The translations under genes and the position numbers were made by a program. This document shows positions 1-13,314 of a DNA stretch of 64,000 nucleotides, one piece after another. Source of the stretch: Nitrospirota bacterium (lineage in GTDB: Bacteria > Nitrospirota > UBA9217); contig CAVUCU010000001.1 in the NCBI GenBank assembly GCA_963740085.1, forward strand, positions 352,001 to 416,000, read 5' to 3'. The notes under the pieces are model-generated. The model was not told the origin of the DNA. It ran no database searches and was given only the letters and a program-made list of their open reading frames with translations. How positions within the stretch are numbered: position 1 is the stretch's first letter; each line of letters begins with the position of its first letter.

Positions 1-972
1 GCCGGCAAAGGGATCGTTGATGGTCTTGAACACCAGGGCGGCCAGGGGTTCATCCGGGGACGGTTTGCGGACCGTTTCATTACCTGTCTTGGGATCTATG
101 CCTTTGATCTTTACGGCGTTGGCATGCTCCACCGGTGACGGGAGACACATGAGAATCATGTCGAGGAGCGGCTGGGTCCCCATGTTCTTGACCGGAGAAC
201 CGCAGAGCACCGGCAGCAGGCCGCCCCCGATGGTACCGTGCTTGAGGCCGGCGATGATTTCCTCCTGGGAGAGATCTCCCTTATCCAGATATTTCTCAAG
301 AAGGCTGTCATCGGTCTCGGCGATCTGCTCCACCAGCTTTTTCCGGTAGGCCGCGGCCTCATTCTGCATGTTCGCGGGAACGTCTTTTTCCTCGAACTTT
401 CCGCTTCCGTCCCTGGCGAAGAGCAGCGCCTTCATTTTGATAAGATCAACAACGCCGGTGAAATTATCTTCAAGACCGATCGGCAGTTGGAGCACGAGGG
501 AGTTCTTGCAGAAATACTTCTCCATATCGCCCACGGCCCGGAAGAAGTCCGCCCGCTCCTTGTCAAGCTTGCTGACGAACGCTATGCGCGGGATCTCGTA
601 ATCGCAGGCGAACTTGTAGATTTTTTCGGTCTCGGCTTTTACGCCCGAGATCGCGGAAACGATGAGAATGGCGCCGTCGACGGCGCGAAGGGTGCCTCTC
701 GCTTCCTCAAGAAAATTGATATATCCGGGGGTGTCGATGATATTGATACGAACGCCTTTCCAGTTGGCGAATCCGAGCGAGGAGGTGATGCTTATCTTCC
801 GGGTCATCTCTTCCGGCTCGTGCATGAACACGGAGTTCCCCGTATCCACGCTCCCCATGAGGTCAACGGCGCCGGACGTGAACAAGAGCGCATCGGCCAG
901 CGAGGTCTTACCGGCTGCCCCATGAGACAGGATCGCGATATTGCGGACTTCCTTGACGTCAACATTCGACAT
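1..972 (-). CDS. fusA: Elongation factor G paralog (EF-G2-like), 5' part; runs off the window start
   Basis: Manual translation (not in the ORF track): MSNVDVKEVRNIAILSHGAAGKTSLADALLF... ending ...PLAALVFKTINDPFAG. G1 motif present. SD GGGAGGAG upstream of ATG 972. Confidence 0.9.
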   Translation of the reverse strand, partial: MSNVDVKEVRNIAILSHGAAGKTSLADALLFTSGAVDLMGSVDTGNSVFMHEPEEMTRKISITSSLGFANWKGVRINIIDTPGYINFLEEARGTLRAVDGAILIVSAISGVKAETEKIYKFACDYEIPRIAFVSKLDKERADFFRAVGDMEKYFCKNSLVLQLPIGLEDNFTGVVDLIKMKALLFARDGSGKFEEKDVPANMQNEAAAYRKKLVEQIAETDDSLLEKYLDKGDLSQEEIIAGLKHGTIGGGLLPVLCGSPVKNMGTQPLLDMILMCLPSPVEHANAVKIKGIDPKTGNETVRKPSPDEPLAALVFKTINDPFAG

Positions 973-1187
973 AGACAACTCCTCCCGTGAACAAAAATTT
1001 TGCCGCTTATACCCATACGATCGACGTCCGACCGTCGATTCTCACTGAAAAGCTGCAAAGCCCCGAGACCACGGGGATAAATTGTGCGGACAAAATACTT
1101 TTTAAACTCTTTACCCCTCCGAGTTCCCGCTATATTAAGTTTGATGAATACAAGATTTCTCTGAGTTTTGATTGCAGAATTTTGGCG

Positions 1188-1454
1188 TCACCATATTTCG
1201 GACTTTATTTTCCCTGCCTGTTTGATCAGAACATCAACGACGGCTTCGTTGAACAGGTTGGAGTCCTTGCGGATAACTTCGTCCACCATGCTTTCGTAAT
1301 ATTTCTTTCCTTCGGCAAGCTCCTCGGTCAGGATGTCGAACAAGCTGTCCTTTTCGATGCCCTCTTTGACCTTTGCCTGGTTGTACAGGAGGATGTCGGA
1401 AAGGATGGTCCTCGCAAGTCTCTTGGCTTCATCTGGTTTTACTATCAATCGCAT
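1188..1454 (-). CDS. Small conserved protein resembling myxobacterial RomX
   Basis: 88 aa with AKRLARTILSDILLYN...GIEKDSLF...EG...KSEIW pattern and C-terminal Trp. Upstream TTGATA-N17-TATCAT promoter. RomX similarity is from memory, not a search. Confidence 0.6.
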   Translation of the reverse strand: MRLIVKPDEAKRLARTILSDILLYNQAKVKEGIEKDSLFDILTEELAEGKKYYESMVDEVIRKDSNLFNEAVVDVLIKQAGKIKSEIW

Positions 1455-1515
1455 AGGCTACGCCCCACATGATAAAATTTCGACAACTACCTATCAATGA
1501 AATCCAAATCGTGTT

Positions 1516-1944
1516 TCACTCCAGGATCTCGACGATAACCGGCTTATACTGCTGTGTTTTTTCAACTTTTTTATTATACATCCTGATAAAGAGAAAAGAT
1601 ACCGCCATGCTCACCATCCCTGCGATGAATGCCCAGAGATCGGAAGAGGATTCCGTACCGTACCGCAGGCCGAGGTTCTTGCCGACGATGGCAGCTGCAA
1701 CAAAGACCGTCATAGGGATGCCGTAAAGAATGATGGACGCCTTCAGATATACTTGCGGGGCAAGCACCACCTTCACCTTCTGTCCCTTTTTTGCCCCGAG
1801 CGGGTTCGATGCTTCCATGTACTCCTGCTCCCCGGGATGGCATATTTCGGAAGCGGAACATTTCTCGCATGCGCTCTTAGCAAGAATGGAAACCTTGGCG
1901 ATATCGCCCGTCACTTCAGCTACGATGCCTTCTTCTTCGATCAT
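1516..1944 (-). CDS. SoxR-reducing system RseC/MucC family membrane protein
   Basis: MIEEEGIV...KSACEKCSASEIC motif, LYGIP, two C-terminal TM helices. Confidence 0.85.
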   Translation of the reverse strand: MIEEEGIVAEVTGDIAKVSILAKSACEKCSASEICHPGEQEYMEASNPLGAKKGQKVKVVLAPQVYLKASIILYGIPMTVFVAAAIVGKNLGLRYGTESSSDLWAFIAGMVSMAVSFLFIRMYNKKVEKTQQYKPVIVEILE

Positions 1945-1967
1945 GCTCCATCCTTGATGAACGCAGG

Positions 1968-3610
1968 CTAAAGCCTGCTTCTACCGGTTTCTTTAACTCT
2001 GATCCCCGAACTCCGAATTTTTTTATTCTTCGCCGCCCTCAATAGTTTATACTCGATGCTGTCCACCAGCGCCTGCCAGCTGGCCTCGATCACGTTCTCG
2101 GACACGCCGACCGTGCCCCACTTGTTCTTTCCGTCGCCGGACTCGATCAGCACCCGCACCCGCGCGGCCGTGCCCTCCGCCGCTGTCAGAACACGCACTT
2201 TATAGTCGAGGAGCCGGACATTCTCCAGACCCTTGCCCGGGAAGTACTTGGGAAGGACCTTCCGAAGCGCCTTGTCAAGCGCATTCACCGGACCATTCCC
2301 CCATGCGGCTGTGTGCTCCACGTTTCCACCTACCTCGACAGTGACCGTGGCCTCGCTCACCGGATTGGGGTCTACCTTCCGCTTTTCCGTCAAGATACGA
2401 TAGTCGATACGGTCGAACATGGAAAAAACCGACTCGTAGCTGTGACCCGCGCGCAGCATCAGGAGTTCCAGCGACCCTTCCGCGCCTTCGAATTCGTATC
2501 CTTCGTTCTCGAGCTCCTTGATCTTCCTGAGTATCACCCCGAGTTCCGGGCTTTGCCTGGTGAGCGGGATCCCGAGCTCTGCCGCTTTCTGGAGAATATT
2601 GCCCTTCCCCGCCATGTCGGACACCAGAATGCGCCTTCTATTCCCCACCAGCTCCGGCCTCACATGTTCATAGGTTAGAGCATTCTTCGACATTGCGTCC
2701 ACATGGATGCCCGCCTTATGAGCAAAGGCGCTGTCGCCAATGTAGGGTTGCCGTTTGCGGTGCTGCATGTTGGCGATCTCGTCCACATAGCGGGACACGT
2801 CACGAAGCTTTGCCAGATTGGCGTCCGAGATGCAGTCCATTCCCAGCTTGAGCTTCAGCGTCGGGATAAGGGAGCAGAGATTGGCGTTTCCGCAGCGCTC
2901 GCCGTAGCCATTGACGGTCCCGTGGACCTGGACCGCTCCCAGCCTGATCGCTGTCAGTGAGTTCGCCACTGCAAGTTCCGCATCGTTGTGCGCGTGGATC
3001 CCGAACGGGATAGCAATCGACTTTTTCACCCGGCTGATGATCTCCTCGACCTCATGGGGCATGGTACCGCCGTTCGTGTCGCACAGAACAAGACAATCCG
3101 CGCCCGCGCCCTCCGCAGCGAGGAGCGTCTGAACCGCATAGTCGGGGTTTGCCTTATACCCGTCGAAAAAATGCTCGGCATCATAGACCACCTCATCCAT
3201 GCGTTTCCTGAGAAATGCGACCGATTCTTCGATCATATCGAGGTTCTCGCCGAGCGTGGTCTTGAGCGCCTTGAGCACATGCAGGTCCCAGGTCTTGCCG
3301 AAAATGGTCGCCACCGGTGCGCCGGACGCAACCAATGCCTTCAAGCTCAGGTCATCGGACACCTTGATCTTTGCGCGGCGGGTCGACCCGAAGGCCGCCA
3401 GCCTGGCCTTTCTGAGCCTGACGCGCCGCATTTCCCTGAAGAACTCGATATCGCGAGGATTCGAGCCCGGCCAGCCACCTTCGATATAATGGACGCCAAA
3501 CTGGTCTAGTTTCCGCGCAACACGGACCTTGTCCTCGACCGAGAAGTTCACGTCCTCGGCCTGCGCCCCGTCACGGAGCGTGGTATCGTATAGGTAGAGA
3601 GTTGTTTCAT
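1968..3610 (-). CDS. cimA: Citramalate synthase, with an apparent 2-nt frameshift just after the start codon
   Basis: YDTTLRDGAQ, EGGWPGSNP, HAHND, GERCGNAN and AHKAGIH motifs plus C-terminal regulatory domain. ATG 3610 is out of frame with YDTTLRDG; removing one CT from ctctct gives MKQLYLYDTTLRDG. Confidence 0.9.
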
Positions 3611-3706
3611 AATCGTATTTCGAATTGCAGATTGCGGAATGCGGATTGAGAGCCTGAAGCAGACAGGGGTCCTTATATTCGGCGATCCGAAATCTGACAT
3701 GATCCG

Positions 3707-4936
3707 CTATACGTCAGCGCGCGCCTTATCCATCTCGAATGTCTCATGGAGCGAGCGTACGGCAAGTTCGGTATATTTCGCATCGATCACAATGGAGATC
3801 TTGATCTCCGACGTGCTGATCATCATGATATTTATGCCCTCTTTGGCCAGACAGGAAAACATCCTGGCGGCTACACCCGAGTGAGAGCGCATGCCGACAC
3901 CGACGATCGAGATCTTTGCGATATCCTCCTTAACGGTCACGCCCTTGGCGCCGATCTCGGCAACGACCTTCTTCATAAGTTCTGAGATTTTCCTGGAATC
4001 CGTCTTCGGCACGGTAAAGGACATGTCCGTCAACCCGCCCTCGCCGATGTTCTGGATGATCATGTCAACGACGATGTTGTTCGCCGATATTTCATTGAAT
4101 ATCTTCGCTGCCACACCGGGCTTGTCCGGAACGCCCGTTACCGTCACTTTTACCTGGTTCTTATCATACGCCACACCCGACACCACCACTTTTTCCATAT
4201 CAGAATCCTCCTTGGTCACAAGGGTCCCCGGGTTGTCGTTGAAACTTGAGAGCACCCGTATGGGAACATTATATTTTTTTGCGAACTCGACGGAACGGGT
4301 CTGGAGCACCTTGGCGCCGAGACTCGCCAGTTCAAGCATTTCGTCATATGAGATCTTGTCCAGTTTCCTGGCCTGTGGCACCATGTTCGGGTCCGTGGTA
4401 TACACGCCGTCCACGTCCGTGTAGATGTCACAGAGGTCCGCCTTGAGCGCGGCGGCGACCGCCACGGCTGAAAGGTCCGACCCGCCGCGTCCCAGGGTCG
4501 TCACATCGTCGGACGTTGCGCTGATTCCCTGGAAACCCGCGACCACGGCGATCTTGCCTTCCTTTATCGCCTGTTTGACCCGCTCGCCTGAGATCTTCTC
4601 GATCCTCGCCCTGGTATGGACGCAGTCGGAGATGATCCCCGCCTGCCTGCCGGTGAAGGACTGCGCCCTGTGCCCCAGCGACTGGATCGCCATGGCCAAC
4701 AGTGAGATGGTCACTCGCTCGCCCGTGGACACCAGCATGTCCAACTCCCGCGGGTCCGGGTTCTCGCTCACCTGATTGGCAAGGTTGATGAGCTTGTCGG
4801 TCTCGCCGCTCATGGCCGACAGGACCACCACGACATCATTGCCTTCTTCTTTGGTCCGGACAACACGTTTTGCCACGTTCCTGATCCGCTCTGGATTCCC
4901 CACGGATGTGCCGCCGTATTTCTGAACGATAAGCAA
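3707..4936 (-). CDS. lysC: Aspartate kinase
   Basis: [18 protein letters not shown] and DVDGVYT motifs, two ACT domains. TTG start with GGAGG 6 nt upstream. Confidence 0.97.
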
Positions 4937-4970
4937 TCATGACCTCCGTTATAATAAAAACTGCTTTTAA

Positions 4971-5046
4971 CCACAGAGATCGCAGAGAACAGGATTGTAA
5001 AGCCTGCGTTTTGAATCTTAAGTGCTTTTCTCAGCGTCCTTTGTGG
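4971..5046. repeat. Miniature palindromic intergenic repeat (CCACAGAG/CGCAGAG type)
   Basis: Imperfect inverted arms ccacagagatcgcagag ... ctcagcgtcctttgtgg around an AT-rich spacer. Confidence 0.55.
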
Positions 5047-5055
5047 GAAACCTCT

Positions 5056-6285
5056 TTATTCTTTCAAAAAATAATCCATCAGCGTATAGCCTTCTTTGAA
5101 AACCAGCGCATCTTTGCGGTCTGCTATCTTCTCATCATAGGGAACAGGTCCGCCCTTGCGCTCCTTTGTATTGTCGTAGATCACGAAGGGCACGGGATCC
5201 GCCGTATGGGTCCTGAGCTCGACCGGAGTGGGGTGGTCGGGAAGCGACAGGATGCGGTATTCGTCGAACTGCTTCATGCCATGGATGATGTTCCCGACCA
5301 CGAATTCATCAAAGTCCTCAATGGCCCTGAGCTTGTTCTTGAGATCGCCGGTATGTCCCGCCTCGTCGGGCGCCTCTACGTGGAGGTACACGATGTCTTT
5401 GGTCTTAAGCGCCCAGAGCGCATGCTCGGCCTTGCCCACGTAGTTGGTGTCGATCCAGCCCGTGGCGCCCGGCACGTTGATCACATCAAAGCCGGCATAA
5501 ATACCGAGGCCCTTCGTAAGGTCCACCGCCGAGATCATGGACCCTTCGAGGCCGTACTTCTCCCTGAAGGTCGGCATGGTCGGCCGTTTTCCCTGCCCCC
5601 AGAGCCAGATGCTGTTCGCCTGTCGTTTTCCGTTCTCCTGGCGTGCCTTGTTCACCGGATGAGCGAGGAGCAGGTCAAGGGACGACTCCATCAGGGCATT
5701 GATGATATCGTCGCCTTCGCCGCACGGAAGATAGTCCTGAATGTCCTTGTCCTGAATATCGTGAGGTGGCGTGCATTCGATCTTGTCTTTGCCGCCCTTC
5801 CATACCATGAGATGGCGGTAGCTTACGCCGGGATAGAAACGGATGCGGTCACTGCCGAGTTTGCTGTCGATCTCCTCTATGAGCAGCCGGGCCTCCTGCG
5901 TCGTGATGTGACCCGCGCTGAAGTCCTCCATGATCGCTCGCCTTCCCTTGCCCGTTGAGGGAGACTTGCCGCTGATGATGCGCAAGGTCACGAGATTGCA
6001 GCGAAACGCGATATCGTTCGGCGCGAGCTCCACACCGATGCTTGCCGCTTCGAGCGGCGACCGGCCGGTAAAGTACTTCCGCGGGTCATAACCCATCACC
6101 GAGAGGTTGGCCACGTCGCTGCCAGGGGGGAACCCTTCCGGCACCGTGTGCACCATGCCCACCTGCCCGAGCGTCGCGAGCTGGTCGAGGTTCGGCGTCT
6201 TCGCCGCCTGCAGACACGTCTTGCCCCCAAGAGCCGCATGCGGCCTGTCGGCCATCCCGTCACCAAGTAAAATGATATATTTCAT
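5056..6285 (-). CDS. apgM: Cofactor-independent phosphoglycerate mutase, ApgM family (subgroup proposed to act as homoserine kinase)
   Basis: GDGMAD, PGSDVANL, HVEAPDEAGH and PDHPTP metal motifs. Located between hom and lysC. Confidence 0.88.
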   Translation of the reverse strand: MKYIILLGDGMADRPHAALGGKTCLQAAKTPNLDQLATLGQVGMVHTVPEGFPPGSDVANLSVMGYDPRKYFTGRSPLEAASIGVELAPNDIAFRCNLVTLRIISGKSPSTGKGRRAIMEDFSAGHITTQEARLLIEEIDSKLGSDRIRFYPGVSYRHLMVWKGGKDKIECTPPHDIQDKDIQDYLPCGEGDDIINALMESSLDLLLAHPVNKARQENGKRQANSIWLWGQGKRPTMPTFREKYGLEGSMISAVDLTKGLGIYAGFDVINVPGATGWIDTNYVGKAEHALWALKTKDIVYLHVEAPDEAGHTGDLKNKLRAIEDFDEFVVGNIIHGMKQFDEYRILSLPDHPTPVELRTHTADPVPFVIYDNTKERKGGPVPYDEKIADRKDALVFKEGYTLMDYFLKE

Positions 6286-6304
6286 GAGAGACCTTATCGT
6301 TCGT

Positions 6305-6484
6305 TACGAATCAAATTCTTCTCAAAACAGCAAGAAATTTTCTTGCAGTAGCCTATGAAAGAAAAGCGGCCACTTAGGACTTCCGCAGAGCCCGCAGAGA
6401 AAAATCTAAAAATCTGGGTAAAAAAGAGTTCAACGTTTTGATTCAACTCAGCGTCCTCCGCGTGCTCTGCGAGATACGCCTTTT
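6305..6484. repeat. Dispersed MITE-like palindromic repeat carrying a 34-nt insertion
   Basis: Shares tacgaatcaaattctt start and ctctgcgag...cgcctttt end with the copy at 36890-37077. Confidence 0.7.
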
Positions 6485-6488
6485 TGCG

Positions 6489-6731
6489 TTATGAGCTTTC
6501 AAAATCACCTTCAATGGCATCAACCTTCACGCCTCGTTCCCTGAGATACGCGATCCCCTCTTCGAGCTTCTTTTCCGTCCCTTCGAACTCCAGAACCACT
6601 TCGCCCACCGAGTCTGTGATCCTGGCCCGCCTGATATTCGGCATCACGTTGAACTTCTTTGCCATGGTGAAGATCACGGGCTCCTTGATCAGTTCCTTCG
6701 GAAAGATCAGTTTTACCCTCTTCGTCGTCAT
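6489..6731 (-). CDS. Stand-alone NIL domain protein
   Basis: MTTKRVKLIFPKELIKEPVI...PNIRRARIT...GEVVLEFEG. SD GAGGAGGT before ATG 6731. Confidence 0.85.
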   Translation of the reverse strand: MTTKRVKLIFPKELIKEPVIFTMAKKFNVMPNIRRARITDSVGEVVLEFEGTEKKLEEGIAYLRERGVKVDAIEGDFESS

Positions 6732-6858
6732 AGGCACCTCCTCGCGTCGAAGAATACGAAATGGAAAGGACATAACGCAAAATTATTGAGCAATGACTTC
6801 TCGGCCCTCGTTTTTTTTTGCAATTTGCATTTTGAAATTTAAATCGTTGGCTTACTAT

Positions 6859-7131
6859 CTATCCTCCCGCGATAGCCGGCACGATCGAGATCGTGTCTCC
6901 GTCCTTCAGCGCTGTCTCTTCCTTGTCCAGAAAACGGATGTCCTCGTCATTCACGTAGACGTTGATGAACCGCCGGATCTTGCCGCCTTCCGACAACCGC
7001 TCCTGCATGCCAGGGTAGTCCCTCTCGAGCGCGTCAACAAGCTCTTTGACGTTCTTTACCTTGCACTCCACTTCCGCTATGCCTTTCGTCAGACTTTGCA
7101 GCGGCGTCGGAATTCTCACTTTGATTGCCAT
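6859..7131 (-). CDS. MoaD/ThiS-family ubiquitin-like sulfur carrier protein
   Basis: VRIPTPL, INVYVNDEDIRFL and a free C-terminal AIAGG. Confidence 0.93.
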   Translation of the reverse strand: MAIKVRIPTPLQSLTKGIAEVECKVKNVKELVDALERDYPGMQERLSEGGKIRRFINVYVNDEDIRFLDKEETALKDGDTISIVPAIAGG

Positions 7132-7402
7132 ATCACTCCTCCCGATCTCCATAATCCTGGAAACCAATACAAACACATTTGCTTCGATACCTATTTGCCC
7201 CTCACTCATTCCCACCGCTCGGGACGGGCTTTATCCTCTCCGCAGCGGGGAGAAAGGGATACCAGACAGAAGACAATTATTATTTCGTTCGTATTAGAGA
7301 ATAGAAATTAAGTGTTTGAGGAACTGCCTTAATCCCCGGATCACTTTCTGTGAATGTTACTGCTTCAGCGGCTTCTCGATTTCCCGGTGATCGGCATCGG
7401 CC

Positions 7403-7828
7403 CTAGAGAACGGTCAATACGATTTCGCTTACCTTTCCTTCCTGGATCGAGAAACCCCTGGCGACCGGCTTCGCGCGGTCCATGAGGGTAACAATGACGT
7501 ACACGGCATCGGGATAGTTCGGCAGCTGCGTCCCGGGCCAGTACGCCTGATTCACGTCCACGCTCGACGGATAGGCCTGGCTGTGCGGATGGGAATGGAA
7601 CAGACCGATCAGTTCGAGTCCTGAATCCCTGATTTCCTTCATCACGCGAAACTGCTCTTCCGGGTCCATTTCATAATAGTCAGGGCCCGGCTTCGCGTTC
7701 ATCATGCAGTAGGCCTTTTCCACCCTGCCGTCTTTGCCACCAAGCATTCCGCAGGCTTCGTTCGGCGCTGCCGCAAGACAGTGGTCAAAAATAGTTTGAA
7801 GGTCGGATTTCTTGATGATCAATTCCAT
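7403..7828 (-). CDS. JAMM/MPN+ (M67) metallopeptidase, Mec+-like
   Basis: PNEACG and FHSHPHSQAYPSSVD JAMM motif. Confidence 0.92.
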   Translation of the reverse strand: MELIIKKSDLQTIFDHCLAAAPNEACGMLGGKDGRVEKAYCMMNAKPGPDYYEMDPEEQFRVMKEIRDSGLELIGLFHSHPHSQAYPSSVDVNQAYWPGTQLPNYPDAVYVIVTLMDRAKPVARGFSIQEGKVSEIVLTVL

Positions 7829-7914
7829 GCCATTTACCTCAGAGGCGCAGGAAGGGACTCTCAACTTCTCTGATCCTTACTGTTCCGCAATCCGAAATCG
7901 GCAATCCGAAATTC

Positions 7915-8718
7915 CTAATGGCTCATAGAGCAGAACTGCTCATAATCGATCAGTTCCGTGATCGTCGGATGTGCGCCGCATACAGGACAGTCTTTATTCC
8001 GGGGCACTTTTACCGTGCGGAAACTCATATCAAGCGCATTCCACAAGAGGAGCCTGCCCTTCAACGGCTGCCCGATCCCGAGGATGGCCTTGATCACCTC
8101 GGTGGCCTGGAGCGTCCCCACCACTCCGGTGACCACGCCGAGGATGCCTGCCTCCTGGCACGATGGCACCATGCCGGGCGGCGGAGGGACCTCGAACAAG
8201 CAGCGGTAGCACGGCCCGTCACCGGGATAAATGCTCATCACCTGGCCTTCGAACCGGAAGACCGCCGCGCTGATAAGCGTTTTTCCCTGCATCACGCAGG
8301 CATCGTTCACGAGGTAGCGGGTCGGAAAATTGTCGCTTCCGTCCACCACGATATCATAGTCCTTGATAATGTCCATGATATTCTTTGACGACAGTCGCAC
8401 CTTGTGCGTCACGACCTTTACATCATGGTTCAGCGTCTCGTACGTCTCTTTTGCCGAATCGGCCTTGAGCACCCCGATACGGCTGGTGTTGTGTGCGATC
8501 TGGCGCTGAAGGTTCGAGAGCTCCACGTGGTCATTGTCGATCACGCCGATGGTGCCGACGCCTGCCGCGGCGAGATAGTACCCGACCGGCGAGCCGAGAC
8601 CGCCGGCGCCCACAAGAACTACTTTGGCGTTCAGTATCTTCTCCTGCCCTTCCCCGCCGACTTCCGGGAGCAGGATGTGCCTGCTGTATCGCAGTATCTG
8701 GTCTTCAGTGAAATCCAT
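7915..8718 (-). CDS. moeB: MoeB/ThiF family adenylyltransferase (no rhodanese domain)
   Basis: RYSRHI, GAGGLG, SNLQRQ, CYRC, CQEAG and CPVC motifs. Confidence 0.92.
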   Translation of the reverse strand: MDFTEDQILRYSRHILLPEVGGEGQEKILNAKVVLVGAGGLGSPVGYYLAAAGVGTIGVIDNDHVELSNLQRQIAHNTSRIGVLKADSAKETYETLNHDVKVVTHKVRLSSKNIMDIIKDYDIVVDGSDNFPTRYLVNDACVMQGKTLISAAVFRFEGQVMSIYPGDGPCYRCLFEVPPPPGMVPSCQEAGILGVVTGVVGTLQATEVIKAILGIGQPLKGRLLLWNALDMSFRTVKVPRNKDCPVCGAHPTITELIDYEQFCSMSH

Positions 8719-8807
8719 CACGAACTCCGTTCGAATGCAAAATGCAAAGTGGAAAATGAAAAATTAAACTTTCCCAAACTTTGAAATTTGCATTTTACAT
8801 TTTGCAC

Positions 8808-9068
8808 TTAATTTTTTTTCTTCTCTTTATCTTTCCGGACAAACACGTGCCACTCTTTTTCACCTGTCTTGTCGATCCTCAGGACCTTCTGTCCCTCGTT
8901 CTCCATGCTTCTGGGCACGTTCTCTGTCGCCGGCTGATGATCGAAGATGATCTCAAGGACCTCGCCGAGGTTCATCTTCTCGATCGCCAGCTTCGAACGC
9001 ACAAAGGTGTACGGACAAACCTGGCCTTTGAGGTCGATGGTTTTATCTATTTTTATGTCGTCAGTCAT
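8808..9068 (-). CDS. TusA/SirA family sulfurtransferase
   Basis: IDLKGQVCPY motif; 86 aa. Confidence 0.9.
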   Translation of the reverse strand: MTDDIKIDKTIDLKGQVCPYTFVRSKLAIEKMNLGEVLEIIFDHQPATENVPRSMENEGQKVLRIDKTGEKEWHVFVRKDKEKKKN

Positions 9069-9181
9069 GAGCACCTCCGTTGCAATACACCAAATCACAA
9101 GACGCAAATCGCAATAAATTTCGAACGTTCTCCGATACTTGTATTTTGGAATTTTGTTATTTTGCGATTTGCGATTCTCTC

Positions 9182-10495
9182 TTATCCCTGTTTCCCTTCT
9201 TCCACCCTGATCACCATCGTCGGCCCTGCCACGCAGTCCATCCTGTTGATCTCATCGAGCGCCCTGCGCACGTCGCGCTCGACCGCCTCGTGGCTCATCA
9301 TCACCAGGGGGACGGCCTCGGCAGCGCCGCGGCCCTTCTGTATGACGGACGAAATGCTGATATTGTTCTTGCCGAGCACGCCGGAGACCCTCGATAGGAC
9401 CCCGGGTTTGTCCCTGACCGAGAAGCGCAAATAATAGCAGGAGAGGATATCGTCCATCGCGCGGATCTTCAGCACCGAACGTTCACGGAAGGCCACGAGC
9501 GGCGACCGGTTCACGCTGCCTGCAAGAATGTCTCTGCCTATCTCGATGATATCGCCCACCACCGCGCTGCCCGTAGGCATGTCGCCCGCGCCTCGCCCGT
9601 AGAACATCGTGGAACCAACTGCGTCGCCCACGATCGAAAGCGCGTTGAAGACGCCATCCACCGCGGCAATGGGGTACTCCCCGGGAAGCATGGTCGGATG
9701 CACCCGCGCCTCGACCTCGCCATCCACCATCTTGGTGATCGCCAGCAGCTTTATCTTGTAACCGAGTTCTTTTGCGAAATCGATATCCAGCGGCGTGATC
9801 TTCGAGATCCCCTCGGTATAGATATCGTTGAACTTCACCGGTGTTCCGTAGGCAAGCATGGTAAGCACCGCGAGCTTATGCGCCGAATCGATGCCTTCGA
9901 TATCGAACGTGGGATCAGCCTCGGCATACCCCTTGGCCTGGGCCTCTTTCAGCACCTCATCGAACTTCCTTCCCTCATTCGTCATAAGCGTCAGGATGTA
10001 GTTGCAGGTGCCGTTCACGATGCCATGGATGGACTGAATATTGTTCGCGGCGAGCCCGTTTCTGACGGCCGCAAGGATCGGAATACCGCCGGCAACCGAT
10101 GCCTCGAACCCGACCGTGACTCCAGCCTTCTCCGCTGCCGCGTAGATCTCCTCGCCGTGCACCGCCAGGAGCGCTTTGTTCGCCGTCACCACATGCTTTT
10201 TGTTCCTGAGCGCCTCAAGGATGAAATCCCTGGCGGGCTTGTACCCGCCGATCAGCTCGACTACGATGTCGATTTCAGGGTCAGTGATCAGCGATTGTGC
10301 ATCGTTCGTGAGCTTCACGTCGCCCAATTTTATACCCCGGTCGCGTTTGGGATCGAGGTCCGATATCTTTTTGAGGACAACGGGGGCTCCGAGCCTTCGT
10401 TTAATGATATCAGCGTTATCGATCAGGATGCGGGCCGTGCCCGTACCCACCGTGCCAAAGCCGATGATACCCACGTTGATTGATTTCTTGGTCAA
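9182..10495 (-). CDS. hom: Homoserine dehydrogenase with C-terminal ACT domain
   Basis: GFGTVG, VTANKA, FEASVAGGIP, NGTCNYIL and GYAEADPTFD motifs. Confidence 0.97.
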   Translation of the reverse strand: MTKKSINVGIIGFGTVGTGTARILIDNADIIKRRLGAPVVLKKISDLDPKRDRGIKLGDVKLTNDAQSLITDPEIDIVVELIGGYKPARDFILEALRNKKHVVTANKALLAVHGEEIYAAAEKAGVTVGFEASVAGGIPILAAVRNGLAANNIQSIHGIVNGTCNYILTLMTNEGRKFDEVLKEAQAKGYAEADPTFDIEGIDSAHKLAVLTMLAYGTPVKFNDIYTEGISKITPLDIDFAKELGYKIKLLAITKMVDGEVEARVHPTMLPGEYPIAAVDGVFNALSIVGDAVGSTMFYGRGAGDMPTGSAVVGDIIEIGRDILAGSVNRSPLVAFRERSVLKIRAMDDILSCYYLRFSVRDKPGVLSRVSGVLGKNNISISSVIQKGRGAAEAVPLVMMSHEAVERDVRRALDEINRMDCVAGPTMVIRVEEGKQG

Positions 10496-10822
10496 GTTCC
10501 GATCCTCTTTTCCTGAGGTGATATTGATGATAATAGCAAAGACACAATGCGGCTGGGACCCATGATCCTGCCGAAACGCTCAGGCAGCTCTAACCCGTTA
10601 TTTTTCATAGAATTTTTTATAACCAGGCTGATCAAAAAGCGAAACTGATAATAAAACACTATGTACCTTTTGTCAATAACAAATACTTATAGAACGCCCT
10701 CAGCACGGCCTTTTGAAGACGTGACCTCCAAGAAAAAGCTTGATTTATCAGACCGCCTGTGATAAGTTTCATCTCTTAAAACTGAGTAAGGTCGATTCCC
10801 GGACAGGATACGAAGCGGGATT

Positions 10823-10870
10823 ACTCCTTGCTCCCTGCGTGCCAGCAGGGGGCTATAACCCATGAGGAGG
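10823..10870 (+). promoter_or_regulatory. S6:S18-binding ribosomal protein leader RNA
   Basis: ACTCCTTGCTCCCT...AGGGGGC..AACCCATGAGGAGG: anti-SD CTCCT, inner hairpin and CCC just before the SD, directly upstream of rpsF. Confidence 0.7.
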
Positions 10871-10879
10871 CAAACAATA

Positions 10880-11248
10880 ATGCATCTGTACGAATCAATA
10901 TTCATCATCAACGCCAACCAGACCGACGAAGAGATCGCCAACGTGATCAAGAAGATGCAGGAAGTGGTCGCGAAGCAGGGCGGCGAAATGATCAAATTTG
11001 AGGACTGGGGCAAAAAGAAGCTTGCCTATGAGATCAAGAAGCAGAAGCGCGGCCACTACGTGTTTTTCCAGTTCAAGGCTGCGCCCGGCGCGGTAAGCGA
11101 ACTCGAGCGCACATTCAAGCTCACCGATTCGGTGATAAAGTTCCTGACCGTAAAGCTCGAAAAGGAACTGCGCACCAGGCCGGCCCCGAAGCCGAAGAAG
11201 AAGGACCTCGCCAAGGCAGCGGCAGAGGCGGGACATGCCGCGGCATAG
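10880..11248 (+). CDS. rpsF: 30S ribosomal protein S6
   Basis: YESIFI, WGKKKLAYEIKK and GHYV motifs. Confidence 0.97.
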   Translation: MHLYESIFIINANQTDEEIANVIKKMQEVVAKQGGEMIKFEDWGKKKLAYEIKKQKRGHYVFFQFKAAPGAVSELERTFKLTDSVIKFLTVKLEKELRTRPAPKPKKKDLAKAAAEAGHAAA

Positions 11249-11333
11249 CCCCTGACCACCGGTCACATTCGTCCGATCCCCCGCATGCACTTGGAAAAGA
11301 TGCATGAGGACATCGTGAAAATCGAGGTAACCC

Positions 11334-11747
11334 ATGACAAGCTTCAATAAAGTGATCCTGCTGGGCAATCTCACCCGCGATCCCGAGGTGCGCTACACGC
11401 CGAACGGCAGCGCGGTTGCGAGCTTTGCCATCGCGATCAACCGAAAGTATAAGCATGGTGAAGAGACCAAGGAAGAGGTCAGTTATTTCGACATCGTCGT
11501 GTTCGGCAAGCAGGCCGAGAACTGCGGGCAATATCTCAACAAGGGAGACGGGGCACTGATCGAAGGCAGGCTGCAGCAGCGCCGGTGGGAGGACAAAGAT
11601 TCCGGTCAGAAGCGAAGCAAGATAGAAGTGGCCGCGCAGTCGGTGCATTTCATGCCGAAGCGCTCGTCGACCGGCCAGGGCGGCGGTCACAGCCAGTCTG
11701 AACCTGCGTCCGAAACACCCGTGGATGAGGGAGAGATTCCCTTCTAA
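11334..11747 (+). CDS. ssb: Single-stranded DNA-binding protein
   Basis: NKVILLGNLTRDPE and acidic C-terminal EIPF. Confidence 0.97.
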   Translation: MTSFNKVILLGNLTRDPEVRYTPNGSAVASFAIAINRKYKHGEETKEEVSYFDIVVFGKQAENCGQYLNKGDGALIEGRLQQRRWEDKDSGQKRSKIEVAAQSVHFMPKRSSTGQGGGHSQSEPASETPVDEGEIPF

Positions 11748-11790
11748 CCGCTTTTTGAAAACTATTAATTACTAAGAGGAGTTCACTATT

Positions 11791-12093
11791 ATGGCAGCGT
11801 ATCCAGCACGTTCTTCAGAACGGCCTTCTGACTCGAGAGGCAGCAGAGGAGACAGTAGAGGCCCGAACAAAAGGCGTTTCCAGGTCCGGAAAAAGGTTTG
11901 CCGGTTCTGCGTCGACAAGACCCCTTTCATCGATTACAAGGACATCAAGACGCTCAGATTCTTCGTCACCGAGCGTGGCAAGATCCTTCCCCGCCGCATC
12001 TCCGGCAACTGCGCGCGGCATCAGCGCGAGGTCACCGTTGCGGTGCAGCGATGCAGGAACATCGCGCTCCTGCCCTTCTCGGGGGAGAAGTAA
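11791..12093 (+). CDS. rpsR: 30S ribosomal protein S18 (Zn-binding type)
   Basis: CRFC, IDYKD and [19 protein letters not shown]. Confidence 0.97.
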
Positions 12094-12131
12094 ACCGGGC
12101 GCGGAAGCGAATTCAGTTTGATTCAGATCCC

Positions 12132-12180
12132 AGGGAAACCCGGCGGTTACTCATCAGTGACCCTGAGTTTCCCTTTTTTT
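12132..12180 (+). terminator. Probable intrinsic terminator after rpsR
   Basis: GGGAAAC...GTTTCCC stem followed by T7. Confidence 0.6.
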
Positions 12181-12381
12181 ATTATTTGACTATCATGAAA
12201 AGTAACTACTCGGATTGGCCGCAAAAGAACGCAAAGATCTCAAAGAAAAAACCTGCAACCATGTATTTTGTTTTAATTCTCTCTGCGATCCTTGCGTTCT
12301 TTTTCGCGGCTAACAGCTTTTTACCTGAATTTATCCGTGTCCATCCGTGGTTAAGCATGTCTTGATTATCTGGAGATCGCT

Positions 12382-13314
12382 ATGAACTACCGCGCCATCC
12401 TCATCGCCACCATACAGACCCTCGGGCTTTTTGTTTCCGGGTTCGTCATCCCCCTGCTCGGTCAGATGGTCGCCCTGTTCACGCCCGTGCCGCTCATACT
12501 CATCTATGTCCGGAACGGCAAGCAGGCAGGACTGCTAACGCTCGTCGCGTCAAGCGTCGTCATGTTTCTCCTCGGCGGATGGCAGGCCGCGGCCATTCTC
12601 ATTCTCAGTTTCGGCCTGATGGCCATCGGCACTTCGGAAGGCATTCGCAGGAACTTGAAACCCGAACAAACCTCACTCCTGGGCGGACTTCTGCCGATAG
12701 CGGTGCTGGGTGCGATCGTTGTGTTCTATCTCGTCCGGGTCGGCAATAACCCGATCACCGAGGTAGAGGCCTATCTCCGGGAGATCATAGCCAATTCAGC
12801 AAAGACCTACACGACCATGGGGCTCACGGAAATGGCGGCCGTGGTCTCATCCATCCCTGACTCCTTTGTCTATTATCTGACAAGGCTCATCCCCAGCATT
12901 ACCATTGCCACCTCGGTGACGCAGGCTGCCTGCTGTTTCGGCATTGCGCGCGCCATCCTCATGCGAAATCCAGGACCGGAACCGTTGCCCGCACAGCCCT
13001 CGCTCGCAGTATGGCACGCGCCGGACTCATGGGTATGGGGCCTCATCGCGGCCCTTGCCCTCATCATCTTCCCCGGGGAGACGCCGAGGTTCATCGGGTG
13101 GAATATTGCCATTCTGTTTGCCGTGCTCTATCTCGTGCAGGGCAGCGTTATCGTGGAGAACTATCTCCGAAAGACGGGCATCAGGGCCTTTGGCCGCGGC
13201 CTGATCCTCGCGCTCATCCTGGTCATGCCCTCCGTCGTTTTCGTGATCGCCCTCGGCGTCGTAGATATCTGGGCGGACTTCCGCAAAGTAAGGGGGCCCG
13301 TCGCGATTTCGTAG
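12382..13314 (+). CDS. DUF2232/YybS family membrane protein
   Basis: Multi-TM protein with YLVQG and GVVDIWADFRK end; canonical position after rpsR. Confidence 0.85.
   Translation: MNYRAILIATIQTLGLFVSGFVIPLLGQMVALFTPVPLILIYVRNGKQAGLLTLVASSVVMFLLGGWQAAAILILSFGLMAIGTSEGIRRNLKPEQTSLLGGLLPIAVLGAIVVFYLVRVGNNPITEVEAYLREIIANSAKTYTTMGLTEMAAVVSSIPDSFVYYLTRLIPSITIATSVTQAACCFGIARAILMRNPGPEPLPAQPSLAVWHAPDSWVWGLIAALALIIFPGETPRFIGWNIAILFAVLYLVQGSVIVENYLRKTGIRAFGRGLILALILVMPSVVFVIALGVVDIWADFRKVRGPVAIS

Follow-up and report, generated by a model that had tools for sequence, protein, structure and literature searches.

What receives the sulfur of a ubiquitin-like relay when the enzyme expected to take it is missing? 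This question is raised by a cassette in a Nitrospirota genome (assembly GCA_963740085.1), within the 64,000-nucleotide stretch at positions 352,001 to 416,000 of the forward strand of contig CAVUCU010000001.1 (the whole stretch is called the window below). There, genes for a TusA-family sulfurtransferase, an E1-like MoeB, a JAMM metalloprotease, a sulfur carrier ending in Gly-Gly (GG) and a stand-alone NIL-domain protein lie between hom and the gene for HomK, a putative homoserine phosphotransferase. In many relatives the same cassette also encodes a pyridoxal 5'-phosphate (PLP) enzyme, a paralogue of threonine synthase (ThrC) comparable to MetM, and that layout is, on gene content, the known MetM/MetO/MoeZ/Mec route to homocysteine. 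What is new, on the same grounds, is that the helper genes persist without MetM in this genome and in 28 relatives. Gene calls were made from translations of open reading frames (ORFs) with Pfam and NCBIfam profile scans of the window's proteins, and gave the following cassette features:

9182..10495, minus strand: hom, homoserine dehydrogenase with a C-terminal ACT domain (Homoserine_dh 221 bits; NF004976 558 bits)
8808..9068 (ORF up to 9107), minus strand: TusA-family sulfurtransferase, 86 residues from MTDDIK (PF01206 75 bits)
7915..8721, minus strand: E1-like adenylyltransferase (MoeB/ThiF/MoeZ core), 268 residues (PF00899 281 bits)
7403..7828 (ORF up to 7864), minus strand: JAMM/MPN+ metalloprotease (Prok-JAB, Mec/HcyD-like), 141 residues from MELIIKK (PF14464 78 bits)
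7132..7402, minus strand: spacer of 271 nucleotides at the site of the relatives' 410-residue MetM-like gene, with no remnant of that gene
6859..7131 (ORF up to 7215), minus strand: ubiquitin-like sulfur carrier (ThiS/MoaD family, MetO/CysO/HcyS-like), 90 residues (PF02597 61 bits)
6489..6731 (ORF up to 6773), minus strand: stand-alone NIL-domain protein, 80 residues (PF09383 64.7 bits against a gathering score of 24)
5056..6285, minus strand: HomK (ApgM-like, TIGR02535/ThrB2), putative homoserine phosphotransferase yielding O-phosphohomoserine (TIGR02535 563.8 bits against a cut-off of 446.3)

The start codons at 9068, 7828, 7131 and 6731, each within a longer ORF, are the likely ones. All genes of the cassette are co-oriented, in the order hom, TusA, MoeB/ThiF, JAMM, carrier, NIL, HomK, lysC, cimA and then rseC, and the arrangement hom-tusA-moeB-JAMM-carrier(GG)-NIL-apgM-lysC-cimA described in an earlier note on this DNA was confirmed by ORFs, Pfam and NCBIfam. 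The conserved cysteine of TusA was read in translation within GQVCPYT, and MoeB carries two CxxC pairs and the cysteine of a PSCQEAG motif. No rhodanese domain was found on MoeB, which matched only the adenylyltransferase part of the MoeZ (positions 14-275 of 392) and PRK08762 profiles; this profile coverage bears out the earlier view of a MoeB without rhodanese, with TusA as its conserved neighbour. The JAMM motif E...HxHx7Sx2D is intact in the protease and the carrier terminates in PAIAGG followed by a stop codon. Homoserine kinase activity of the ApgM-like protein, also suggested earlier, is supported by the TIGR02535 score and by the function described for the family in PMC13759103, where BT2402 of Bacteroides thetaiotaomicron, a TIGR02535 member, replaces homoserine kinase by complementation, the family is named HomK and E299 of BT2402 is proposed as a specificity residue. 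GapMind calls HomK by position near hom (PMC13759103); the window's ApgM-like gene is both above cut-off and near hom, and no differences from HomK/ThrB2/TIGR02535 (BT2402) were seen.

To place the cassette among its relatives, one genome per species was searched and 231 loci encoding a relative were found, of which the best 80, almost all from Nitrospirota metagenome-assembled genomes (MAGs), were used. Loci were sorted by matching the window's proteins, and the other candidate enzymes of its genome, onto each. As most genomes are MAGs, any single absence is weak and the argument rests on counts. The same gene order recurs in the related loci fetched (n = 80), indicating that the arrangement is not due to chance. 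Four of the 80 were cut by contig ends and unclassifiable, leaving 76. Set A (n = 28) has the layout of the window and no MetM-like gene; set B comprises 18 loci (17 plus L026, missed by the identity rule) with the hom..cimA layout and a 410-residue gene between JAMM and carrier; and set C (n = 30) consists of Thermodesulfovibrionales-type loci in which a MetM-like gene is followed by carrier, NIL, (ThrC), HomK and lysC.

The earlier note had proposed synteny across relatives as a means of finding a missing partner, and a candidate was indeed found: a 410-residue zinc-ribbon ThrC paralogue is encoded directly upstream of the carrier in 48 of the 76 classifiable loci (18 of set B and 30 of set C). 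Its zinc ribbon is N-terminal, and it scores about 300 bits against PRK08197 and about 275 bits against TIGR00260. A canonical short ThrC (335 bits, TIGR00260) is present in the same operon in 20 of the 30 set C loci, and set B genomes encode an additional, different ThrC elsewhere; the role of housekeeping threonine synthase therefore does not fall to the paralogue inside the cassette. When the relatives' MetM-like protein was used in a homologue search, the best 120 matches were unnamed or called 'threonine synthase' and mostly from Nitrospirota, with no named Streptomyces match among them. The occurrence of this PLP enzyme in the same cassette supports the route proposed earlier, from phosphohomoserine to homocysteine by way of a carrier thiocarboxylate. 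On contigs 14 and 10 of G034, the genome of L030, two MetM-type ThrC paralogues (276 and 273 bits, TIGR00260) were observed along with a plant-type ThrC, reflecting either a duplication or a strain mix.

Streptomyces albulus makes homocysteine from O-phosphohomoserine by means of the carrier MetO, the JAMM hydrolase Mec, the E1 MoeZ and the ThrC-like MetM, whose substrates are O-phosphohomoserine and the MetO thiocarboxylate (Hasebe et al. 2024, as described in PMC13759103 and PMC12172450), and MetM is 'often misannotated' as threonine synthase (PMC13759103 and preprint). GapMind 2026 predicts a diverged Mec in the Nitrospirota member Dissulfurispira thermophila from gene context and prototrophy (PMC13759103). 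With the MetM/MetO/MoeZ/Mec route published in 2024 and included in GapMind 2026, the description 'uncharacterised' given earlier no longer applies to it. The features in common are a carrier ending in GG, an E1-like enzyme, a JAMM hydrolase and the O-phosphohomoserine skeleton, and the window's relatives have a ThrC-family synthase beside the carrier. The differences are that this genome is without MetM; that MoeZ has a rhodanese domain whereas the window's E1 does not and is adjoined by a TusA gene instead; that the window has an extra conserved NIL gene, no SAM (S-adenosylmethionine) riboswitch and an embedding in a hom..lysC operon; and that O-phosphohomoserine would be supplied by HomK rather than ThrB.

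MetM was found neither in the cassette nor elsewhere in the window's genome, which is 98.5% complete, consistent with the earlier statement that no PLP synthase is present in the cluster. The genome holds five PALP-family genes (cysK, a cysM-like gene, two trpB and one ThrC-like gene), and the MetM-like protein of L027 matched only its ThrC, at 25% identity. Neither the JAMM-carrier spacer nor the rest of the genome showed a remnant of MetM. Among the set A genomes (n = 29 with that of the window) there was one ThrC-family match in 27 and none in two, and the MetM type was found in none; it was present in 18/18 set B genomes. An IQ-TREE tree was built from HomK, LysC, NIL and carrier (37 rows, 984 columns), on which the distribution of MetM requires 7 changes of state, and well-supported branches force at least 5 of these. 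The tree itself cannot show direction, and loss or allelic replacement is the likelier one because set C, the outgroup, has MetM at the same position.

Judged by gene content and identity, the five helper genes stay intact in the MetM-less lineage, with no decay. JAMM, carrier and NIL were present in 28/28 set A loci and hom in 25/28, the remainder being cut by contig ends, so that the cassette is conserved beside hom, as the earlier reading had demanded. TusA adjoins MoeB in 25/28 set A and 17/17 set B loci. Identity of set A proteins to those of the window is 87-99% for MoeB, 75-96% for TusA, 73-96% for the carrier, 69-96% for NIL and 56-91% for JAMM. When the intergenic spacers of the 28 MetM-less loci were compared, only the ribosome-binding site was conserved.

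The JAMM gene is single-copy in the genome, and in its product 8 extra residues, WPGTQLPN, are inserted shortly after the JAMM motif. When the count was restricted to sequences with a query coverage of 85% or more, this insertion (WPGTxLPN) was present in 27/28 set A proteases (the exception being L062), in 2/16 from set B (L047 and L083) and in 0/13 from set C. Residues following the GG were observed in 72 of 79 related carriers, in which an invariant PAIAGG is followed by 1 to 33 variable residues, and only 7 relatives and the window have a carrier that stops at GG. Carrier trimming is therefore the common role of JAMM, and the proposal that the protease releases product and does not mature the carrier fails as a general rule, even though the window's carrier needs no trimming. 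Release of the product, homocysteine, is also plausible. The tails vary in length and sequence (R, RG, TR, CC, KGVS, up to 33 residues), even among close relatives. In L095 (9725-10240 region) the carrier frame runs past GG into a full 80-residue NIL domain, which represents either a natural carrier-NIL fusion needing a JAMM cut or a stop codon lost in the MAG.

Since dedicated MoaD-MoaE and ThiS-ThiG genes exist elsewhere in the genome, the cassette carrier is not the carrier for molybdenum cofactor (Moco) or thiamin; a third MoaD-like gene lies beside an aldehyde ferredoxin oxidoreductase gene. The cassette MoeB is the only ThiF-family gene outside the nif cluster and is probably shared with other pathways. 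A second ThiF-family gene, HesA-like in appearance, was seen in the nif cluster on contig 7 (207670-208422; L103:7670-8422), its neighbours being homocitrate-synthase-like, radical SAM, ferredoxin, two P-II, NifX-like and NifE/N-like genes.

For the NIL protein 1671 homologues of about the same length were found, and most of the best 120 are more than 75% identical. The family profile identified the MetN C2 domain as a relative (3dhx, E 1.3e-5), and Asn32 of the NIL protein, which is invariant, aligns with MetN N295. The N295A replacement in MetN brings L-methionine binding down to undetectable (PMC6233128). The genome encodes only one NIL domain, the NIL and carrier genes are adjacent in every locus showing both, and NIL is kept with or without MetM; similar 80-residue NIL clusters were found in Chloroflexota. 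The NIL protein most likely represents a methionine-sensing regulatory partner of the relay. It shares with the MetN C2 (NIL) domain of Escherichia coli MetNI (3dhx, 3dhw) the domain family and the invariant L-methionine-binding Asn, but is stand-alone whereas that of MetN is fused to an ABC ATPase, and ligand binding by it is putative. Complex prediction for MoeB, carrier and NIL, with NIL scored and the chains supplied as alignments, gave a score of 0.00 in two runs, which speaks neither for nor against binding.

From gene identities, domains and layout, together with the MetM-like gene of relatives and the absence of MetM here, we infer every biochemical step of the following scheme. TusA would carry a persulfide to the E1-like MoeB, which would adenylate the C-terminal Gly-Gly of the carrier, and sulfur transfer would then produce the carrier thiocarboxylate. 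A PLP enzyme would join the carrier sulfur to O-phosphohomoserine, made by HomK from the product of hom, and JAMM would free homocysteine from the carrier and, in most relatives, also trim the residues after GG. NIL would sense methionine and throttle the relay. We thus infer that in a MetM/MetO-type pathway the five genes between hom and homK could provide the half that delivers sulfur.

For the other half, the rest of the genome was searched for enzymes of methionine and cysteine synthesis. MetX and MetA were not found in the genome, ThrB gave no match above cut-off, no second HomK, JAMM or NIL gene was found, and DUF39/HcyBio (PF01837) was not found in this genome, three control genomes giving matches. 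MetY is absent from the genome, its sole PF01053 gene being like that of cystathionine gamma-synthase (CGS), with no equivalog model above cut-off. The earlier note had named metA/X, metY, thrB, thrC, cysK and MA1821-like genes as those to be checked; the lack of metA/X/Y, ThrB and DUF39 agrees with its proposal, whereas ThrC and CysK proved to be present.

The genome's single true PF01053 gene comes immediately downstream of its single ThrC gene (contig 5, 348378-350977; L016:8378-10977). The best solved relative of this ThrC is Arabidopsis threonine synthase (1e5x, 557 bits; next 193), and that of an intact CGS orthologue is tobacco cystathionine gamma-synthase (1qgn, 363 bits; next 286), which uses O-phosphohomoserine. 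The likeness to the plant O-phosphohomoserine branch point (1e5x, 1qgn) thus lies in adjacent ThrC and PF01053 enzymes that are each nearest the plant enzyme by a wide margin; the differences are the bacterial operon and the lack of a PF01053-family cystathionine beta-lyase. The ThrC-CGS pair was found in all 46 genomes of the window's clade. A simple CGS-versus-MetM complementarity within this clade was rejected, CGS being present in 46/46 set A and B genomes; its frequency in set C was 13/33. Of the 20 genomes without CGS, 18 have MetM in the cassette and the loci of the other two are cut by contig ends, and no genome among those examined lacks both. This distribution is the pattern that would be expected of two routes to one product, and because CGS and MetM appear to be alternatives MetM can be lost where CGS exists. 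The presence of CGS does not explain why carrier, JAMM and NIL are retained.

The reading that we tentatively favour, and to which we would give somewhat less than an even chance, is a TusA-MoeB-carrier thiocarboxylate relay for homocysteine with the plant-type CGS as likely acceptor. The acceptor is chosen by elimination: CGS is favoured because it is the only O-phosphohomoserine-type gamma-replacement (Cys/Met-family) PLP enzyme left in the genome, because it is universal in the clade and because there is already, in Wolinella succinogenes, a reported case of a PF01053 enzyme that draws on a carrier thiocarboxylate. That system, HcyS/HcyD/HcyF/MetY, reportedly described by Krishnamoorthy and Begley in 2011, is the closest such precedent and is said to combine a carrier thiocarboxylate with a PF01053 enzyme, the JAMM protein trimming the carrier and releasing homocysteine. 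It reportedly uses O-acetylhomoserine and a MetY-type sulfhydrylase, whereas here MetX and MetA are lacking and the PF01053 enzyme is plant-CGS-like and encoded on another contig; in Wolinella JAMM is said to remove residues after the GG of the carrier, whereas the window's carrier already ends there. A fuller version is doubtful when all its parts are taken together: CGS would take the thiocarboxylate sulfur and so make MetM dispensable (lost at least 5 times), the JAMM insertion would handle the new adduct and NIL would be a methionine-sensing subunit.

Several observations weigh against a relay for homocysteine with CGS as acceptor. The enzyme missing from this genome is the one that defines the known pathway, and the label MetM-like denotes ThrC family, zinc ribbon and position rather than a comparison with the Streptomyces MetM sequence. 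A SAM riboswitch is reported upstream of S. albulus metM (PMC12172450), and an Rfam E-value scan of window positions 1-12500 yielded no SAM riboswitch, the sole match (sR33, E 0.78) being at chance level. The genome has no general E1 other than MoeB, and MoeB and TusA would thus be kept for Moco and thiamin anyway. CGS is equally conserved with and without MetM (A-A 90% and A-B 84% identity), and a search for a CGS signature tied to MetM loss yielded one alignment column and no indel (37/40 sequences, 3 being dropped by the motif filter); with only that column separating sets A and B there is no sign of CGS adapting to a new sulfur donor, which weakens the case for CGS. CGS could also simply use cysteine, as in plants. 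The CGS gene itself has a frameshift caused by one extra base at contig 5 position 350310 (L016:10310). This is likely an assembly error, on thin read support: the base is missing from one short-read contig of depth 3 that is nearly identical (no mismatches) as well as from one relative's contig, read runs X1 and X4 gave no contig spanning the site, and CGS orthologues are intact in other genomes. Finally, no MetE-type (PF01717) or MetH-type (PF02574) domain was found in this genome or in 34/36 relatives examined. The PF01717 control search also missed Methanosarcina, whose methionine synthase is of MesC type (PMC7857596), and a MesB-like methionine synthase may therefore be present but unseen.

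The main rival, which we consider unlikely, is that the carrier feeds a CysM-type cysteine synthase and that CGS and a beta-lyase then make homocysteine from cysteine and O-phosphohomoserine, the cassette sitting in the aspartate operon because the cysteine sulfur is destined for methionine. The model for the CysM step is Mycobacterium tuberculosis CysO/CysM/Mec/MoeZ (structures 3dwg and 3dki), which likewise pairs a carrier thiocarboxylate with a JAMM hydrolase and has a phosphorylated amino acid as acceptor. A CysM-like gene is present in the window's genome (contig 1, 1248404-1249309; TIGR01138 349 bits against a cut-off of 394), its orthologues at 68% identity or more occur in 59/80 genomes across all three sets and follow lysC in 6 set C loci, and CGS is of the plant type, the plant enzyme using cysteine. 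However, the gene is some 890 kb from the cassette, CysM was near the cassette in 0/46 loci of the window's clade, and it was not found in 7/29 MetM-less genomes against 0/29 for CGS, although MAG incompleteness may explain some of these. The setting also differs from that of M. tuberculosis in its homoserine/aspartate context and in an E1 without rhodanese. The best solved relatives of the CysM-like protein are ordinary CysK and CysM (263-252 bits), with the thiocarboxylate-using CysM of M. tuberculosis at 221 bits; CysE and CysK are present and already supply a canonical cysteine route, and the genome has no second PF01053 gene to serve as beta-lyase.

It is improbable, though less easily dismissed than the methanogen link discussed last, that after MetM loss the cassette came to work outside amino-acid synthesis, MoeB and TusA serving Moco and thiamin and carrier, JAMM and NIL acting in sampylation/urmylation-like protein conjugation or in tRNA thiolation. 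The standing of the cassette MoeB as the sole non-nif ThiF-family gene would suit such a role, a changed substrate would fit the near-confinement of the JAMM insertion to MetM-less cassettes (27/28 against 2/16 and 0/13), and the best NCBIfam names are SAMP1 for the carrier, UbaA (SAMP-activating) for the E1 and desampylase for the protease. These matches to the archaeal SAMP/UbaA/JAMM1 system nevertheless all fall under the curated cut-offs (SAMP1 50.5 against 60, UbaA 345.3 against 450, desampylase 78.3 against 130), the genes stay between hom and homK in every MetM-less locus, and NIL, which of all components is the one most specific to the MetM type of cassette, persists at the identities given above. 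As MetM-containing and MetM-less sets are interleaved on the tree, and carriers and MoeB are about equally similar across and within sets, a change of function is not evident. A link to the methanogen aspartate-semialdehyde sulfurtransferase route (MA1821/MA1822-like), marked by NIL and with the carrier as donor, is close to refuted. The earlier note had drawn this link from the shared NIL domain, and automatic names of homologues such as 'L-aspartate semialdehyde sulfurtransferase ferredoxin' point the same way; but the MA1821/MA1822 system has a DUF39 enzyme and a NIL domain fused to a 4Fe-4S ferredoxin, and the window's genome has neither. The DUF39 search was negative with positive controls, the 80-residue NIL protein lacks a ferredoxin domain, cysteine is missing both from it and from 20 aligned homologues, and the relatives' cassette holds an enzyme of O-phosphohomoserine type, the ThrC paralogue.

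Methionine synthesis in many anaerobes is incompletely mapped, and in this whole clade of Nitrospirota from soil and sediment HomK, a plant-type threonine synthase and a plant-type CGS make up a branch point at O-phosphohomoserine. Should CGS be the acceptor, MetY and MetM would be joined by the plant-type enzyme as a third type of PLP enzyme that accepts sulfur from a carrier. The persistence of the relay after MetM loss makes its thiocarboxylate consumer a directly testable question, and the locus isolates two conserved partners, namely TusA in place of a rhodanese domain and NIL. Annotations of cassette members as 'threonine synthase', 'phosphoglycerate mutase' or 'ABC-type methionine transport ATPase subunit' are misleading.

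The operon is completed by the following features:

10648..10676, minus strand: sigma-70-like promoter match upstream of hom (11/12 consensus positions)
3707..4936, minus strand: lysC, aspartate kinase with two ACT domains (Pfam and NCBIfam)
1968..3551, minus strand: cimA, citramalate synthase (TIGR00977 744 bits)

The promoter-like site was called by consensus alone, and sites of this kind were no more numerous across the region than in shuffled sequence. Both lysC and cimA fall just beyond the span 5056..10495 considered earlier. In six Thermodesulfovibrionales-type loci (L071, L078, L085, L090, L092 and L096) the gene directly after lysC, with which the cassette operon ends, encodes a CysM orthologue 75-83% identical to that of the window's genome. 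Relative to the TIGR00977 profile (526 positions), the cimA frame begins at position 19, and no start codon precedes it in frame; the N-terminus may have been truncated, or a sequencing error may have disrupted it. Split matches in hom, lysC and cimA, resembling the CGS frameshift, were also observed in several related loci from long-read MAGs.

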